Shown here: positions 1,653 through 31,181 of the stretch, in pieces
Position numbering within the stretch: the first letter of the stretch is position 1
Layout: each line of letters starts with the position of its first letter
Sequence record: PZ445447.1
Direction: 5' to 3' (one strand)
Source of the DNA: a phage
Length of the DNA: 64,000 bases
Program-made: the position numbers and the translations under genes
The notes under the pieces: generated by a model
The model's database searches: none
Told to the model about the DNA's origin: nothing
The model's input: the letters and a program-made list of their open reading frames with translations, nothing else

Positions 1653-3720
1653 ATTTATGGCATCTGCATACAACCGTTTCGGTGAGCCAAACCCGAAAGC
1701 AACTAAGTATAAAAGTGGGGGAAGTGTGAAACGAGACTATCGTGATGAAAAAGAGGTTGAAACTGTAGAGACTGTTTTAGAAAATACTAAAATTGTCCCT
1801 GTTCCACAACAAAATATCGGTCTGATGGCTGCACAATATTTTGGTGTGCGATCAGCATTGTCTCAAGAAGACGGTGTGACAGTTACTGCAACATATTTCC
1901 CATATTACGACCGCTACGGAAATCTGTCAGGTTTCAAAAAGCGTGACTGGACGATTCCTAAAGAGCAAAGGGGCCATTTCTCAGTTGTTGGCATAGTAAA
2001 GGCTAACTCTCAGATGTTTGGGCAAAAGCTGTGTGCATCTTCCAACAACCGTAAGCAAATTAACGTTTGTGAGGGGGAAGGTGATGTTATTGCAGCATGG
2101 CAGGCTGCATATCAGATACAAGTAAAAGGGATTCTCACCAACGCTAAAGCCCCGGCAAAGGTGAAGCAGTGGGCTAAAGAGGTCCAGGACGGGATCGATG
2201 CAGTTATCAACGGTGGTGATCTGGCAGGAAAACCCTGCCTACCTTTTGTTGGAATTAACTGTGGATGTGCAAACGCAGTAGATACTTTTGCAAACAATGA
2301 GAAGTTTATCCGTAGCTATGGAACAGTTGTGCTGGCAATGGATAACGATGCAGCTAACGAGGTAGAGAAGCAAAAACACGTCATTAAAGGTGTCGAGGCC
2401 ACGCACAATATCGCAGCATTTTTGATGGCTGATAACGTTTACCACGTAGAATACCCTGGTGAAGTAAACGACCCTGACGGTGTAAAAGATATCCGAGACA
2501 TGCTGAAGGCTAAAAAGCTGGAAGATATTGTCAACATGTTCCGGCATCCTGTTAAATATGTGCCTGATGCTGTGTCGGATTTAGAAGACTTCTCTATCGA
2601 GTCTTTGCGGAAAAAGACTTCCAACGGGGTAGATATCAGCGCAGAGTTCCCAAAACTGCAAAAAATGCTAAAAGGCTTGCACAAAGGTACACTCGTAATG
2701 CTTACAGGCCCATCAGGTGGCGGTAAAACAACCGTAGCTAAAAAACTGGAACACTGTATTGCAAGATACCTAATGGACCCGACATGCCCGAAGGCTGATG
2801 ACTATGAAGAGGATGATCGTCTATGTATGATCCATCTTGAGGAGGACCCAGAGGAAGCAATTAACTCCTTGTATGCAAACCAGTTAGGGTTTGATGTTAA
2901 AGAGTTTGTTGAAGATCCTAGCCAGTTTTTAACTGATCAAGAACACGCAGAGATTCATCAGTCATGGGCAAAAGCTGGAAAAATCAAAGTGTTCAAACAT
3001 TTCGGGTCTATTCCGGTGGATGAGTTGATTACCAAGCTTAAGCAAATGGTTTGCCTGTACCATTGCCGTTATATTGTGCTGGATCACCTGTCCATGGTAA
3101 TTTCAGGGCTTAATGTTAAGGATGAGCGAAAAGAACTGGACATGGCTATGACCCAACTGGCTGCGTTTTGTAAGCAGTTTAATGTGTTTATCTTGGTGAT
3201 CGCTCACCTCAAACGTACAGAGATTGTGCCTCCTAAGGACAAGGATGGTAACCCGTTACCTTTCTGGTATCCTGTGCGAAAAGAGAATTTGCGAGGATCG
3301 GCTGGGCTTGAACAGTTGAGTTGGGTAGTTATAGGTGTCGAGGCCGAAGAAATGGTGGATCGTTCTCGTGGGCGTGTCCGTCTGGTAGGTCTTAAAAACC
3401 GTCCAGCAAAAACTTTAGGTATTGCTGACACTTTAGTTATGGACCCGCACACAGGTAAGTTCCATGATGCCAGTAACTGGTACTGGGACAAAGAAATGCA
3501 AATGTTTACAGACGGAGAAGGTGGGGAGGTTGTTTGGAGACCTCAGGCTATGTTTGAGGATCAGGAGCATGCAGTTGTAGAAACACCTATGGGCAAGGTT
3601 GTGGCTGATAAGGTTGTAACTCCTACTGTTAAGCCTGTTGACACGCAGGAAGACCTCCAGTACGATGATCCGTCCTCTGACCATGTTCCTGGTTTTGAGG
3701 ATGATGAAACACCTTTTTAA
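1642..3720 (+). CDS. DNA primase-helicase (TOPRIM primase domain plus DnaB/T7 gp4-like helicase)
   Basis: TOPRIM motifs CEGEGD and VLAMDNDAAN; Walker A GPSGGGKTT; Walker B-like IVLDHLS; 692 aa. Confidence 0.8.
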   Translation: MGSKFMASAYNRFGEPNPKATKYKSGGSVKRDYRDEKEVETVETVLENTKIVPVPQQNIGLMAAQYFGVRSALSQEDGVTVTATYFPYYDRYGNLSGFKKRDWTIPKEQRGHFSVVGIVKANSQMFGQKLCASSNNRKQINVCEGEGDVIAAWQAAYQIQVKGILTNAKAPAKVKQWAKEVQDGIDAVINGGDLAGKPCLPFVGINCGCANAVDTFANNEKFIRSYGTVVLAMDNDAANEVEKQKHVIKGVEATHNIAAFLMADNVYHVEYPGEVNDPDGVKDIRDMLKAKKLEDIVNMFRHPVKYVPDAVSDLEDFSIESLRKKTSNGVDISAEFPKLQKMLKGLHKGTLVMLTGPSGGGKTTVAKKLEHCIARYLMDPTCPKADDYEEDDRLCMIHLEEDPEEAINSLYANQLGFDVKEFVEDPSQFLTDQEHAEIHQSWAKAGKIKVFKHFGSIPVDELITKLKQMVCLYHCRYIVLDHLSMVISGLNVKDERKELDMAMTQLAAFCKQFNVFILVIAHLKRTEIVPPKDKDGNPLPFWYPVRKENLRGSAGLEQLSWVVIGVEAEEMVDRSRGRVRLVGLKNRPAKTLGIADTLVMDPHTGKFHDASNWYWDKEMQMFTDGEGGEVVWRPQAMFEDQEHAVVETPMGKVVADKVVTPTVKPVDTQEDLQYDDPSSDHVPGFEDDETPF

Positions 3721-25933: not shown

Positions 25934-26197
25934 ATGAAACGTCTGGATCAGCTTAAATTAGTTCAGTACATGGCCTACAGAATTCTTGAAGTCCAAAAAG
26001 GTAGCAAAAAAGAGGTTTGCGAGAAAGCTTATAAGATCTTTACTCGCAAAAAAGATGACTGGATGCTACGCCAGACCAAAAAATCCGATATCCTGGGGTA
26101 CCTGGAAGAAGAGATCCGGCTTGAAGAACAAGAAGAGATCCGCCGCAGTGAGGCAGATTATCAGGCAGCTTGGGAAAACTGGATGAGCAACAAATAA
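25934..26197 (+). CDS. hypothetical protein
   Basis: AAAGAGGAAAACATCATG leader; in frame with ORF 25862-26197. Confidence 0.55.
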   Translation: MKRLDQLKLVQYMAYRILEVQKGSKKEVCEKAYKIFTRKKDDWMLRQTKKSDILGYLEEEIRLEEQEEIRRSEADYQAAWENWMSNK

Positions 26198-26263
26198 TAC
26201 AACAAGTTACGGTCAGGGGGGTAATAAAGCCCCTTGATCACATAAAAATTATGCTATCCCTGG

Positions 26264-26292
26264 TTGACAGGGATCGGCAGTTTTGCTATATT
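26264..26292 (+). promoter_or_regulatory. sigma70-type promoter
   Basis: TTGACA, 17 nt spacer, TATATT. Confidence 0.65.
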
Positions 26293-26341
26293 CTTTTTTG
26301 AAGGGGAGTTGTAAGAAAATTAACTAAGAGGTAAAAACACC

Positions 26342-26761
26342 ATGAACATTAAATCTAATAATCCGGCATATAGCTTTGATAACGCTTTTTGTCACGGTCC
26401 GGCGGCGAAAGGATTCGAAATCGATGGTAAACTAATTATTGTCAATGTTGACGGGGAAGAGGTTGCAGTATATCCGGTGGCAGACGTTAAAAGCCGTCTA
26501 CAATGCCGCATGGATGTTACCGCCTATCAGCTTGATCCGGTCCGCATAGTTGCCCTGGTCCTGGAAGAAGAAATTAAAGCCATGCACCATAGCAACAGAT
26601 TTATTGGTGACGCGCAGGATAATATGAAAGTATGCCGCCATAAAGTTAATGAAGTGCTTAAAGAGTACGGCTATAAAGATCTTATGATCAAACGCGAGGA
26701 AAAATTCCGCTACCGTAACGACCTGGCAAATCGGATTTTTGAAATATACGAATCATTATAA
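26342..26761 (+). CDS. hypothetical protein
   Basis: AAGAGGTAAAAACACCATG; 139 aa; last plus-strand gene before the convergent hub. Confidence 0.6.
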   Translation: MNIKSNNPAYSFDNAFCHGPAAKGFEIDGKLIIVNVDGEEVAVYPVADVKSRLQCRMDVTAYQLDPVRIVALVLEEEIKAMHHSNRFIGDAQDNMKVCRHKVNEVLKEYGYKDLMIKREEKFRYRNDLANRIFEIYESL

Positions 26762-26780
26762 TTTTTTAACTGAATTATCA

Positions 26781-26805
26781 AGGGGCTTAGGCCCCTTTCT
26801 TTTTG
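26781..26805 (+). terminator. rho-independent terminator
   Basis: AGGGGC-TTAG-GCCCCT then TTCTTTTTG. Confidence 0.7.
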
Positions 26806-26806
26806 T

Positions 26807-29273
26807 CTGCTCTTCCCCCTACCATAAACGGCCCTACCTGGCAAGTGGAATAATTGACGAGCCATCAATCCCACACACTGTACAAACATACATATAAAAT
26901 AACTATTGCATAATTTTTCATTGTGTGGTAGCAGGGCCATTTTTACACGTTTTTCCTTCCAAAATTGCACGTAATGCAGCATTTGCACAAAATTTAACCT
27001 GATGCATATATTCAATAGCTTGTCAACAACTAAAAATCTTTATAAGTCATACACTTACATAACTACAAAAGCGTTTTCTACGTGAAAAATCGAGTATAAC
27101 TATAGCCGCCAGATCTCAGAATTTACGTACGCTCGCCATTCTATAGCCTGCTAAGCATTTATTCCAACCATAGAATAACGGAATAGTCAATACCTGCATA
27201 AAATAATTATTCGTGTAAACTGCATAACATAAATCGGCCCAGGTGTCAACATTTTTCGTAAACAGTCTGGAATTGTCACGTTAGGTTACCATAAGCAGAG
27301 AAATCTTCAGTCGTCTAATGTTTACTGTACGTTACTATATTAACTGAAATCATTAGATGACTAATAGAAAGATAAGAAATAATTAACAATACAATTATTT
27401 TATCTGTAACAATAAGGCAACTATGCAAACGAATGGCATGGCGCGACGGAGTCGCGACATAATATAAAAGCAGTAACCATCACCCCCGTGATAGTTTGTC
27501 TGCAAACTATTAATCAGATCATAGTTGCCTTGTATTTAGTTAATCATGACATAACAAGCAAGGCAACTATAGATCTGCTAATAGTTGCCCTGCTTTTATA
27601 TTATGTCATGCTAATTATAATCAGTGCGATTATTGTCATGTATAATTATTGTCATGCAAACGAATGGCATGGCTGATTATCGGTGTGTAAACAGTCAATC
27701 ATGTAAATGGTTAGCATGTGAACAATCAGGAATGTAAACAATCCAGTGTGTAAACTAATAGGTGTGTAAAAGTGTCATGTTGTGTCAGTTAGGTCACATT
27801 ATGTCAGACAAGTTTTTCTCCTCTTTGTCAAGTGCTGCATGAAAAATTTACAAGCTTGTATGGTAGCATTTTTGCGGCCCTGTTTACATTCAGGAGTGTA
27901 TGTATAATCCTTGGTGTGTGGGCGTTTAGACGTCTGGACGGTAAGAAGTCTGCAGGTTAATATCTAATCTATCGGCTGCTAACTATATCCCACACAAATA
28001 GTAAGAAATATAATTGTTATGTGCGTAAACAGTAACCCATGTTATCAATCCCTGTATGTATCGCCAGTGGTGCGCATAATGGGTATTATGTTAAATTGCC
28101 CGTAATGATAAAGGTTCTCACAATGATAGGTATTCTCATTCACCCTCACAAAATAGATTGCAAATGTTGTGCCACTGTGTGAACGGCCTCACCTATTAAT
28201 TTGCCTCACTGCCTCGATATTTGAGAATTATTATAAGAATGAGAAGTATTCCCATTTCGTCCGCCTGGCAGCACTCCAGTCGCTACGGCTCATGACAGGG
28301 CAGCACTCCTGTAGGTCAGGTCAAAATCGTGGTAGAATTGGGCCTGTTCAGATATTTCTGGCTGACTCTTCAGGTCTGTGTGGGAAAAGCCAACCTCTCC
28401 GGCGGGGCAGGGGGTCATGACGGGAAAATTGCAGGTCAATTAAAAAATTTACGTGGTGTATGAAGCGCTCTTCAGGTAAGGCAGGTATTAGAGGATGAAA
28501 CCCTCTTCAGGCAATGATATTTGTGGGTGTGATATTTGCTGGAAAGCCAGATATGACGGGACTCCCGGCGGGGATGGGGTAGTACAGACAGGGAAAATAT
28601 GGGGATGTAGTTGGGTAAATTGATCAGGCAGGTAGAGTATGGATTATGTTACAGGTATGTTAAATATGGAGGTTGAATATCTGTAAGATTTGTGTGTAAA
28701 ATCAAAGACTTAAGTGGTGTTGTGGTATTTTCTATAAATAATTCAAGTTTAATAGGTAATATTTGTCTCTATCCACTTTGTGTGGTAAACAGATTCAGAT
28801 GAAATTGGTTTACAAGTGTATACATAATATACAAATTAAAGATACAAGAAACCCCCCTCCCCTTCGGCTACCATTCACCTTTTCCTCTGACTGGTACTTA
28901 AACACTTATTCAGACTCTTCAGGTTATCACCCATATATCATATGGCAGTGACTGGTGTCCTCCGGCCCCTCTTTCGTCACCCGTCCGCTTCGCCATGCTA
29001 ATGCCATAGCCAATGGTTCGGTTGTTCACCCTGTTCACTCAGGTGTATCTCCATACCCCTTCAAACCGAAGAGAACAGAAAACCCGAATTACTCGGTAAA
29101 AGAAAAGAGAAGAACTTAATTTTATCAAGATAGGCAAGAATGTCAAGGCATGACTGCTCACTAAACAAGCAAACAGTCATGTGTGGGAGGTAAGTGATTG
29201 TGGTTGTAGGAAATTTAGTTGAAAGATGTGTTATAGGTGCTTCCAGCACTTTAGCCGGGTAGCTAATTGTGTG
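26807..29273. other. large non-coding, repeat-rich region between convergent gene blocks (candidate origin, packaging or regulatory hub)
   Basis: No ORF with credible RBS; AT-rich; inverted repeats around 27425-27610 (ATAGTTGCC in alternating orientation); five TGTAAA(C) repeats 27680-27770; CTCTTCAGG four times 28366-28930. Confidence 0.5.
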
Positions 29274-29489
29274 TCAGTCCAGCGGTTCATCCTCTACTTC
29301 ACTGAAATCAATGTTCATGGTCTCTTCCCAACCATCGATCTCAGCACAAGAGTGGAGTTCTTTAGGGTTTACTCCCAAAGCCTCAGCAACAGAGTCTATA
29401 TTTAACACCTCTGGCAGGTATGATTCATCGAATTCAAGGTAAATCAGGCCACGAGTGTTGTCAGCTCCACCAAATATCTCTATCTTCAT
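29274..29489 (-). CDS. hypothetical small acidic protein
   Basis: GAGGAG RBS; starts MKIEIFGG like several array members; 71 aa. Confidence 0.55.
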   Translation of the reverse strand: MKIEIFGGADNTRGLIYLEFDESYLPEVLNIDSVAEALGVNPKELHSCAEIDGWEETMNIDFSEVEDEPLD

Positions 29490-29610
29490 AAAATCTCCTC
29501 TGGGAATGAAAGTGTGAACAGGGTTTTATACGTTCTAATGCACAGGAATTATACACGTTTGCCTCTTCAGGCCATGCTTTAGCATGAGGAACCTGTGTGG
29601 GCTCGGTGCT

Positions 29611-29778
29611 TCATAGTCTACCACCTCTGAACTCTTCGTGCTCAGGCATAATAGAGAACCAGATATCTACGATGTCCTCCCACGTCAGGTCATCAGCCTC
29701 AGGATCTATCTGGGACGAAGATGAAGAGTCCTCAGAATCTAAGTTTTCCTCTTTAACTGGCTCAGCCAAGGGACACAT
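29611..29778 (-). CDS. hypothetical small acidic protein (55 aa)
   Basis: ATG 6 nt after AAGGAG RBS; in frame with ORF 29611-29850. Confidence 0.45.
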   Translation of the reverse strand: MCPLAEPVKEENLDSEDSSSSSQIDPEADDLTWEDIVDIWFSIMPEHEEFRGGRL

Positions 29779-29780
29779 GG

Positions 29781-30026
29781 TCACTCCTTTGGATGTCTCT
29801 TCAGATGCATGTGTGTGTTGATCATGTTCCACCCGTGAGTATTCCGGCAACAGCTGCTATGGACGTAATGATCATCAGGATCACCACCAAAACCTCTGAC
29901 AATGTTTTCATTGTGTATCCCATATTCTCCAAATGATGTGTGGATATTATCACTGGAGCGGTAATGTGTCAACAGAAACGCCGCGAGGGTTTGGTTAAAA
30001 TCCGAGCGTATGGTGATTTGGGTCAA
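29781..30026 (-). CDS. hypothetical protein
   Basis: ORF track only; weak RBS. Confidence 0.3.
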   Translation of the reverse strand: MTQITIRSDFNQTLAAFLLTHYRSSDNIHTSFGEYGIHNENIVRGFGGDPDDHYVHSSCCRNTHGWNMINTHMHLKRHPKE

Positions 30027-30875: not shown

Positions 30876-31181
30876 TTATTCTACAGAGCGTTTGAACAGA
30901 ATGTCTGCCTCAGACATGTGCTCAACCTCTTCTTCGATTTTAGCGCGACGTTTTTCAGCCTCATAGCGAATATCGAACTCGGTAGCCACCAGAGATTTGA
31001 TGAATTTAGGAGAATACAGGTGATCCTGCTTCTCAACGAGAATGATATCCTTAATGGCATCTTTCAGATCTTTAATCTGAAGTTGGAGTTCTACCAGTTC
31101 TTCGATTGTTTTGCGAAGGCGATCACGCTCTGCAGTGTCAGAAGGAAGAGAGGTGAACAGTTCAACTTTAGATTTAGCCAT
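30876..31181 (-). CDS. hypothetical coiled-coil protein
   Basis: AAGGAGA RBS; 101 aa. Confidence 0.6.
   Translation of the reverse strand: MAKSKVELFTSLPSDTAERDRLRKTIEELVELQLQIKDLKDAIKDIILVEKQDHLYSPKFIKSLVATEFDIRYEAEKRRAKIEEEVEHMSEADILFKRSVE

Follow-up and report, generated by a model that had tools for sequence, protein, structure and literature searches.

A non-coding gap in Escherichia phage MaxBurger as the probable site of genome ends with short direct terminal repeats

What is the function of a 2.5-kb stretch without genes that separates two convergent gene blocks of a large phage? The DNA analyzed here, called the window throughout, is the 64,000-nucleotide stretch of sequence record PZ445447.1. 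It is 100% identical to Escherichia phage MaxBurger (Bas54, MZ501093.1), an rV5-like Vequintavirus and 136-kb myovirus, and window coordinates equal MaxBurger record coordinates minus 66024. The gap spans positions 26762-29273 (2512 bp), between the stop codons of bas54_0134 (26761, + strand) and bas54_0135 (29274, - strand), and the MaxBurger record annotates no genes within it. An initial annotation, made from the nucleotide sequence, described this region as a non-coding hub with inverted repeats and iterons, which might be an origin, a packaging region or a non-coding RNA locus. Comparison with related phages indicates that the gap is probably the concatemer junction, and thus the site of the physical genome ends, of a phage with short, exact direct terminal repeats (DTRs) of the T7 type.

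Terminal redundancies of 458 bp were reported by Korf et al. (2019) for two vequintaviruses, EdH4 and HdK5, which are about 95% identical to MaxBurger in the gap region. The HdK5 record begins and ends with an exact 459-bp repeat that corresponds to window positions 27807-28265; its left end maps from 28265 down to 26781, and its right end from 30366 down to 27807. The records of EdH4, ECP2309, ECP2303, bov10K2, bov22_2 and bov11CS3 start or end at the same two points, 27807 and 28265. Identical ends at fixed positions, the hallmark of a T7-type DTR, are thus found in HdK5, and six other records from close relatives share its end points. Because these virion-ordered relatives share their end points, we place the MaxBurger terminal repeat at 27807-28265 and regard the gap as the concatemer junction. 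The comparison shows, through the relatives, where the MaxBurger genome ends lie, and it bears out the suggestion of a packaging region. The MaxBurger record was assembled as a circle, so the 459-bp repeat appears in it only once. Both repeat boundaries also coincide with a sharp switch from conserved repeat to indel-rich arrays, at 27807 on one side and shortly after 28265 on the other. The repeat_region features in the naswa, nomo and magaca records proved to be a trivial 34-bp tandem repeat at about 28106-28140 and were rejected as terminal repeats.

Equivalent repeats have been described elsewhere in the Vequintavirinae. KPP-1 carries a 514-bp repeat, identified from read coverage and PhageTerm and classed as T7 type, the record of phage DP annotates a repeat_region of 514 bp, and PhageTerm gave a 443-bp terminal repeat for PBES-02. 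Together with the 458-bp repeats of HdK5 and EdH4, these represent the same element as that of MaxBurger. The core identity of the element as a short DTR is therefore already published for close relatives, and the MaxBurger record lacks such an annotation. What we add are modest details, namely a boundary motif, a covarying palindrome and a junction syntax shared across the subfamily. The DTR reports state just how long the repeat is and where it lies. In the portions of them and of the relatives' record annotations that we consulted, there is no mention of the nick motif or the promoter described below, of the palindrome with its covariation or of CTTCAGG repeats in one orientation.

The two boundaries of the repeat carry the same motif, TGYYA^RRC, on opposite strands, where the caret marks the putative nick (Table 1). 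The motif is present at both boundaries in every Vequintavirus relative checked that had the anchor (13 on the left and 12 on the right), and it is kept even where the upstream array is scrambled. The published boundaries of KPP-1 read TGCTA^GAC and TGCTA^AAC, and that of DP reads TGTTA^AAC. Only three copies of TGYYARRC occur in the gap, and two of these are the boundaries. An opposite-strand pair of motifs was found in nine phages of three genera (Vequintavirus, Mydovirus and Seunavirus), with spacings of 459, 514, 514, 515, 516, 515, 515, 516 and 516 bp. The motif is short and degenerate and is therefore not the sole determinant of cutting. Applied to other phages, the boundary motifs predict a terminal repeat of 515 bp in PVP-SE1 (GU070616.1 116171-119806, locus positions 1048-1562) and repeats of 515-516 bp in 4MG, SPLA5a, EspYZU08, EC152 and GAP31. 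None of these six records annotates a terminal repeat.

These features fit staggered nicking, in which the nicks would set the mature 5' ends and the 3' ends would then be extended. While the DNA replicates, each junction would hold the 459-bp repeat a single time, a step that is shown or nearly so. Terminase would then nick the top strand at TGTCA^GAC (27806^27807) and the bottom strand at TGCCA^GGC (between 28266 and 28265), and extension of the 3' ends through the repeat would give each packaged chromosome a copy at both ends. Such nick-and-extend duplication, as in T7, is a general mechanism for DTRs (summarized in PMC5557969). The two non-coding flanks of about 1 kb each would contain cis-acting elements that position and regulate end formation, roles that we infer from their conservation and from the parallel with T7.

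On the left flank, one candidate for such an element is a palindrome. Four copies of ATAGTTGCC alternate in orientation (27416-24, -; 27521-29, +; 27562-70, -; 27581-89, +), and the window as a whole contains five copies against 0.56 expected, a count reached in 0/100 shuffles. The initial annotation had placed these four alternating copies within nested inverted repeats at 27425-27580, which holds except that the span is slightly wider. Three of the sites (27521, 27562 and 27581) lie inside the palindromic element and the fourth (27416) just outside it. The element consists of a small hairpin and a three-way structure closed by perfect 18-nt arms (27456-73 and 27590-607), and it is bracketed by two direct, 100% conserved copies of the 20-mer ATGCAAACGAATGGCATGGC. 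Its fold z-scores are -9.2 and -8.4 for the two strands as RNA and -10.8 as DNA, and it is 99-100% conserved within the genus.

A counterpart of the palindrome is found in other genera. The KPP-1 terminal repeat is weakly similar to that of the window, in the opposite orientation, and this similarity places a KPP-1 palindrome with 21-nt arms at the same relative position. The window arm GCGACATAATATAAAAGCAG and the KPP-1 arm GCGACACAATAACACGGGAG match at 13/20 positions, and we therefore regard the two palindromes as homologous. The KPP-1 gap has homologs in Seunavirus at 70-77% identity, and the Mydovirus and Seunavirus palindromes lie 199-403 bp beyond the same nick. Across nine sequences from these two genera, double substitutions in the arms and inner stems preserve Watson-Crick pairing (for example A-T to T-A, G-C to A-T and C-G to T-A). 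RNAalifold assigned 54 pairs, six of them compensatory. In a separate pair count, 98.8% of cells were paired; there were 17 double-change cells compared to 5.4 ± 2.0 in shuffles (0/500), and pair scores fell near zero when the partners were slid. In KPP-1, four operator-like palindromes (ATGATAAnnnTTATCAT) occur at positions 3547, 3941, 3999 and 4143 of its locus sequence, in and around its palindrome and the adjoining repeat boundary. The half-sites of these ATGATAAnnnTTATCAT palindromes covary in Seunavirus (ACGATAT..TTATCGT), which suggests a dimeric DNA-binding protein. Within Vequintavirus, phage C9 has a 33-bp insertion at 27551, in the loop of the palindrome's long hairpin, that leaves the stems intact, and RudolfGeigy, phiWec189 and C9 share a 29-bp insertion (27615) that follows the palindrome closely and contains a GC-rich hairpin of its own.

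A separate question is whether the palindrome could function as RNA. The gap might be a non-coding RNA locus, either with the palindrome as a structured RNA or with a regulatory or decoy RNA of about 250 nt transcribed from 29112 to about 28864 on the - strand, although we regard this as somewhat unlikely. Fold z-scores near -9 agree with a structured RNA. However, the palindrome folds equally well on both strands, and its compensatory changes are all of the Watson-Crick type, which fits a DNA palindrome better. None of the changing pairs in the nine Mydovirus and Seunavirus sequences passes through a one-sided G-U intermediate. This absence, together with the equal folding of both strands, favors a DNA-level palindrome over a strand-specific RNA. 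A search for structured RNAs by covariance, as proposed in the initial annotation, returned no Rfam match at E ≤ 1 over 26000-30000. Together with the slippage-prone array of short repeats beside it, the palindrome with its ATAGTTGCC sites would probably form a protein-binding or hairpin-forming element in the processing of genome ends.

Conservation across the gap was examined in a MAFFT alignment of 16 relatives that are 89-97.5% identical overall. In the flanking genes, 50-bp bins are conserved at 90-99%, mostly at 92-96%. Within the gap, two islands are invariant (99-100%), at 27400-27600 and about 28864-29200, and two indel-rich zones lie directly outside the repeat boundaries, at 27611-27806 and 28266-28460. 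The left indel-rich zone holds a fast-evolving array of six TGTRAA units, spaced by 16, 15, 16, 16 and 16 bp, and a third TGTCA pentamer follows at 27802, within the nick motif itself. Markov simulations never produced more than three such units per 90 bp, and there is no window-wide enrichment of the TGTAAA(C) 7-mer (25 compared to 21). The roughly 15-bp spacing of TGTAAA(C) noted initially was thus found, as six units at 15-16 bp. The label "iteron" found no support: no part of the gap is less conserved than this array, which has one to seven units in relatives, 76-87% conservation and variable length. A lack of conservation of the repeats in related phages had been named in advance as a point that would speak against a functional hub. 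Instead, the stem near 29150 is 99-100% conserved, and so are the palindrome that carries ATAGTTGCC and the CTCTTCAGG copies.

The right flank carries CTCTTCAGG repeats in one orientation, of which the fourth gap copy lies at 28915-28923, and the gap copies are 99-100% conserved. The window contains seven copies against 0.59 expected, all on the + strand. In eight other phages, drawn from three genera, the same heptamer (CCTGAAG) recurs, almost exclusively on this flank and in this orientation. The three CTCTTCAGG copies outside the gap (29563, 43956 and 52254) are also on the + strand, even though the region from about 29274 onward reads as - strand coding (annotated coding sequences to about 32.4 kb, with negative GC skew beyond). 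The recurrence of CTCTTCAGG at 28366-28930 that had been noted before is confirmed, with over-representation, and the CCGGCGGGG and ATGACGGGA repeats are each present twice; for CCGGCGGGG 0.06 copies were expected, and ATGACGGGA alone is not significant (6/100 shuffles). G-run elements with G-quadruplex potential follow, and a similar element is found 94-158 bp outside the same nick in MaxBurger, PVP-SE1, 4MG and GAP31.

Farther from the repeat, a predicted sigma70-type promoter (29146 to 29119) points back toward it. The most divergent relative keeps the promoter's hexamers but has a rewritten spacer, lengthened to 18 nt, which is the signature of a selected promoter. The 8-bp stem reported near 29150 is present directly upstream of the -35 hexamer, where CATGACTG (29149-56) pairs with CAGTCATG (29174-81); the stem, conserved at 99-100%, is a possible operator. 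A promoter-like site in the corresponding flank of KPP-1 also resembles a terminator hairpin and was for this reason not counted as a conserved promoter. Alongside the G-runs and the CTCTTCAGG repeats in one orientation, the flank opposite the palindrome has a predicted host-type promoter directed toward the terminal repeat. Given the conservation of the promoter, a transcript from the gap is plausible, and the nearly invariant block downstream could be a transcript that end processing requires, a primer within an R-loop or a regulatory RNA.

The last of these possibilities is the second form of the non-coding RNA alternative. It is favored by the promoter, which matches 11/12 consensus positions with an extended -10 and is under selection, and by the block itself, which is nearly unchanged even where the neighboring gene is only 85-86% identical at the protein level. 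The 5' segment of the putative RNA would also be rich in C and U, and it would include a weak, small hairpin and U-run (29096-29084). On the other hand, the fold z-scores of the block are only -0.65 and -0.22, which is not unusual, there is no clear terminator, and the invariance of the block precludes a covariation test. Scans of IMG/VR and metagenomes with bas54_0135 recovered three and five loci, respectively, and these were too similar for RNA covariation. No transcriptome for the genus was found in the literature. The block had no match in E. coli, so a host origin was ruled out.

The same elements bear on whether the gap is a replication origin, which we consider doubtful. In one version, an initiator would bind the ATAGTTGCC palindrome and the AT-rich stretch next to it at 27300-27399. 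In a second version, the sigma70 promoter would give rise to a G-rich transcript that ends at a G-run beside an AT-rich zone and primes replication through an R-loop, as at the T7, T4 and ColE1 origins. AT-rich regions suited to unwinding are present at 27300-27399 (24% GC), which adjoins the invariant inverted sites, and at 28650-28850 (27-29% GC). The conserved promoter is followed by about 250 invariant nucleotides, and the RNA-like strand is G-rich over 28800-29100, then runs into the GGGGAGGGGGG tract and then into DNA of 27-29% GC. The length of this tract, C6TC4 on the + strand, varies among otherwise identical relatives and recalls the slippage-prone tracts at transcription-primed origins. 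In addition, rV5 encodes a primase/helicase homologous to those of Podoviridae, and its origin has not been located. However, the cumulative GC skew has a maximum in the gap, as at a terminus, rather than the minimum of an origin, though skew follows the direction of transcription here. The ATAGTTGCC sites are inverted stem partners and not direct iterons, and the units that are directly repeated, TGTRAA, are not conserved. The flanking proteins contain no Pfam domains, and no initiator-like domain was found in the neighboring genes. Finally, neither KPP-1 nor PVP-SE1 showed a counterpart of the invariant block, and nucleotide matches to the gap are confined to Vequintavirus. An origin would be compatible with genome ends that also lie in the gap.

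Phage T7 was run through the same tools as the window. As in the gap, the T7 junction has a short, exact direct repeat that occurs once per junction. The 160-bp repeat is immediately followed by degenerate units of 13 bp (ACCTAAAG) at 175-341, and weaker copies precede the right-hand repeat. The promoter phiOR (39229) reads into the repeat, and A0 (224), a leftward E. coli promoter, faces the left end. T7 and MaxBurger therefore have a common layout of promoter, short repeats, terminal repeat and short repeats, and the flanking arrays and inward promoter expected of a T7-like junction are both found in MaxBurger, where promoter activity is predicted from the sequence. The two junctions differ in that the MaxBurger repeat is 459 bp, compared to 160 bp in T7, and its flanks are non-coding for about 1 kb each. 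MaxBurger has only a host-type promoter and, unlike T7, no phage RNA polymerase promoters. The end sequences differ as well, and the MaxBurger genes nearest both ends point outward. No large three-way palindrome was seen in T7 at the same tool settings. A hairpin intermediate for duplication of the T7 terminal repeat was proposed by Chung and Hinkle (1990), according to its citation in PMC4281155. The MaxBurger palindrome is likewise self-complementary DNA near the junction, and by folding back it could prime duplication of the repeat, although a part like that of the T7 hairpin in vivo is speculation by analogy.

Closer to MaxBurger, the phages KPP-1, DP and PVP-SE1 share its boundary motifs, palindrome and flank syntax. 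The proteins that flank the KPP-1 gap have no homologs in the window. The terminal-repeat region of phage T5 includes an "injection stop" zone, which is non-coding and rich in repeats and palindromes, and its repeats of about 10 kb carry the pre-early genes. The MaxBurger gap resembles T5 in having a kilobase-scale gene-free zone with direct and inverted repeats and palindromes near a genome end. Two-step DNA entry is not known in rV5-like phages.

Several points weigh against a concatemer junction with T7-type ends. The MaxBurger ends are carried over from relatives that are 92-97% identical here, and the length of the repeat is ambiguous between 458 and 459 bp because one flanking base happens to match. 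The nick motif was defined after the boundaries had been seen, and 18 and 24 copies occur on the two strands of the 64-kb window, where about 16 per strand are expected. Because it is short and was defined post hoc, we rate the nick sites as inferred. Packaging roles for the palindrome, the CTCTTCAGG repeats and the promoter are deduced rather than observed, and the TGTRAA units next to the left boundary are not conserved. Lastly, a published PhageTerm analysis of a phage cocktail inferred headful packaging with partial permutation for the vequintavirus BpE1AUH. If headful (pac) packaging with permuted ends were the rule, the gap would hold at most a pac site, and the 459-bp repeat would be an artifact of assembly or annotation. 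However, the two end positions coincide in seven Vequintavirus records, DTRs were found by coverage doubling and PhageTerm in KPP-1 and by PhageTerm in PBES-02, and in three genera the two ends carry a common motif whose spacing is conserved. Headful packaging is thus highly improbable, and we retain a junction with T7-type ends.

The non-coding character of the gap between convergent gene blocks, also claimed initially, is supported by annotation and by a codon-position substitution test in the 16 relatives. The control coding sequences that flank the gap are intact and show the expected bias toward codon position 3 (12/7/54 and 19/16/86 substitutions at the three positions). Among the gap's open reading frames of at least 40 amino acids, 0/14 combined intactness with such a bias, and protein coding was therefore ruled out. 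The MiataMamis and Mangalyan records contain 13-15 tiny "hypothetical protein" coding sequences that annotation pipelines placed in the gap, and the substitution test indicates that these are spurious. ARAGORN found no tRNA or tmRNA, Tandem Repeats Finder called zero arrays in 26700-29400, the TGTRAA units included, and there are no Chi sites in the gap. About 120 vequintavirus records contain the region, at 88-97% identity.

In the 2013 rV5 paper the region is drawn as a gray "non-coding" box. Its authors had expected bidirectional terminators here, as would suit a transcription buffer that stops or insulates the convergent units through terminators, C-rich stretches resembling Rho-utilization sites and the palindrome as a roadblock. 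The terminator at 26780-26797, equivalents of which are annotated in the Alma and HdK5 records, accords with such a buffer, as does the C-rich RNA that would be made from the + block over 26750-27200 and from the - strand over 28400-28750. Yet the rV5 authors found no bidirectional terminators, the palindrome lacks a free U-tract, and the promoter points into the gap. Moreover, 2.5 kb with invariant islands, oriented repeats and exact ends far exceeds what termination needs, and we consider it quite unlikely that buffering explains the gap.

Table 1. Features of the MaxBurger gap in window coordinates, ordered by position.
Feature	Position	Strand	Remarks
Terminator-like intrinsic hairpin	26780..26797	+	AAGGGGCTTAGGCCCCTT then T-run; closes + gene block
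Non-coding flank	26807..27399		+ strand C-rich 26750-27200; AT-rich 27300-27399 (24% GC)
20-mer ATGCAAACGAATGGCATGGC, copy 1	27423..27442	+	Direct repeat
Palindromic element	27442..27607		Hairpin CGCGAC-GGA-GTCGCG 27442-56 plus three-way structure
Fast-evolving short-repeat array	27611..27801	+	Six TGTRAA units, 27686-27765, then TGTCA/GGTCA pentamers 27783, 27792
20-mer ATGCAAACGAATGGCATGGC, copy 2	27654..27673	+	Conserved island within variable array
Left boundary motif TGTCA^GAC	27802..27809	+	Putative top-strand nick 27806/27807
Direct terminal repeat, 459 bp	27807..28265		MaxBurger record 93831-94289; HdK5 repeat maps here
Right boundary motif TGCCA^GGC	28263..28270	-	Putative nick between 28266 and 28265
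Two copies of GGCAGCACTCC(A/T)GT	28267..28312	+	Directly outside right boundary; indel-prone zone 28278-28350
CTCTTCAGG repeats	28366..28511	+	Copies 28366, 28468, 28503; one orientation
G-run elements	28399..28582	+	CCGGCGGGGCAGGGGG..GACGGGA 28399-28425; ATGACGGGACTCCCGGCGGGGATGGGG 28553-28582
AT-rich stretch	28650..28850		27-29% GC, between G-rich and invariant blocks
Variable homopolymer tract	28852..28862	-	C6TC4 (+) / GGGGAGGGGGG (-); downstream edge of invariant block
Nearly invariant block of about 250 nt	28864..29112	-	Downstream of promoter; putative transcript or R-loop region
Predicted sigma70-type promoter	29119..29146	-	TTGACA, 16-nt spacer, TGaTAAAAT; 11/12, extended -10
8-bp stem CATGACTG / CAGTCATG	29149..29181		29149-56 and 29174-81; 17-nt loop

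MaxBurger (Bas54) is a member of a reference phage collection in wide use, and most of the roughly 120 vequintavirus records, its own included, were opened at an arbitrary point and leave these 2.5 kb blank. True ends at record positions 93831 and 94289 matter for annotation and genome comparison, and they would also help when such phages are rebooted or synthesized, or when packageable vectors are built. From sequence alone, the shared boundary motif predicts where genomes of related genera end, as in the 515-bp repeat predicted for PVP-SE1. More tentatively, and with low confidence, end formation may depend on a DNA palindrome that is folded back or bound by protein, together with an invariant RNA or R-loop of about 250 nt. 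If so, the palindrome, which is self-complementary across genera, would be a processing or priming element for duplication of the terminal repeat. Host RNA polymerase, starting at the consensus-like promoter that faces the genome end, would make the RNA or R-loop. This product would either link transcription to cutting by terminase or prime replication; such coupling would resemble that of T7, which uses its own polymerase. The covarying palindrome and the inward host promoter are concrete sites to mutate when asking how T7-style ends arise in a large myovirus.

The edges of the gene blocks vary among relatives. The gene bas54_0134 (26342-26761) is not present in HdK5, nomo and Alma, and a 164-bp insertion at 26770 is seen in one metagenomic relative. 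Variable cargo thus occupies the ends of the gene blocks. Nineteen "Campylobacter phage" records (MG0656xx), some of them flagged UNVERIFIED and unannotated, are 87-96% identical to the vequintavirus gap and are probably mislabeled or contaminating rV5-like genomes. The heptamer TGTGTGG (often TGTGTGGGA) is enriched in the window, with 21 copies compared to 8.6 expected (0/100 shuffles), and matches no known binding site. Seven of these copies lie in the gap (26871, 26922, 27915, 27990, 28377, 28779 and 29180), and most are 97-100% conserved. Beyond the gap, bas54_0142 (30876-31181, - strand) encodes a 101-residue protein that is at least 99% identical in 115/223 matching records. It is labeled "transcriptional regulator" or "double-stranded DNA-binding protein" in some records and has no Pfam domain. 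Its homolog occupies a different genome position in PVP-SE1 and KPP-1, and for this reason attempts to anchor the other genera on this gene failed. The bas54_0142 product is a candidate for binding the repeated motifs of the gap.

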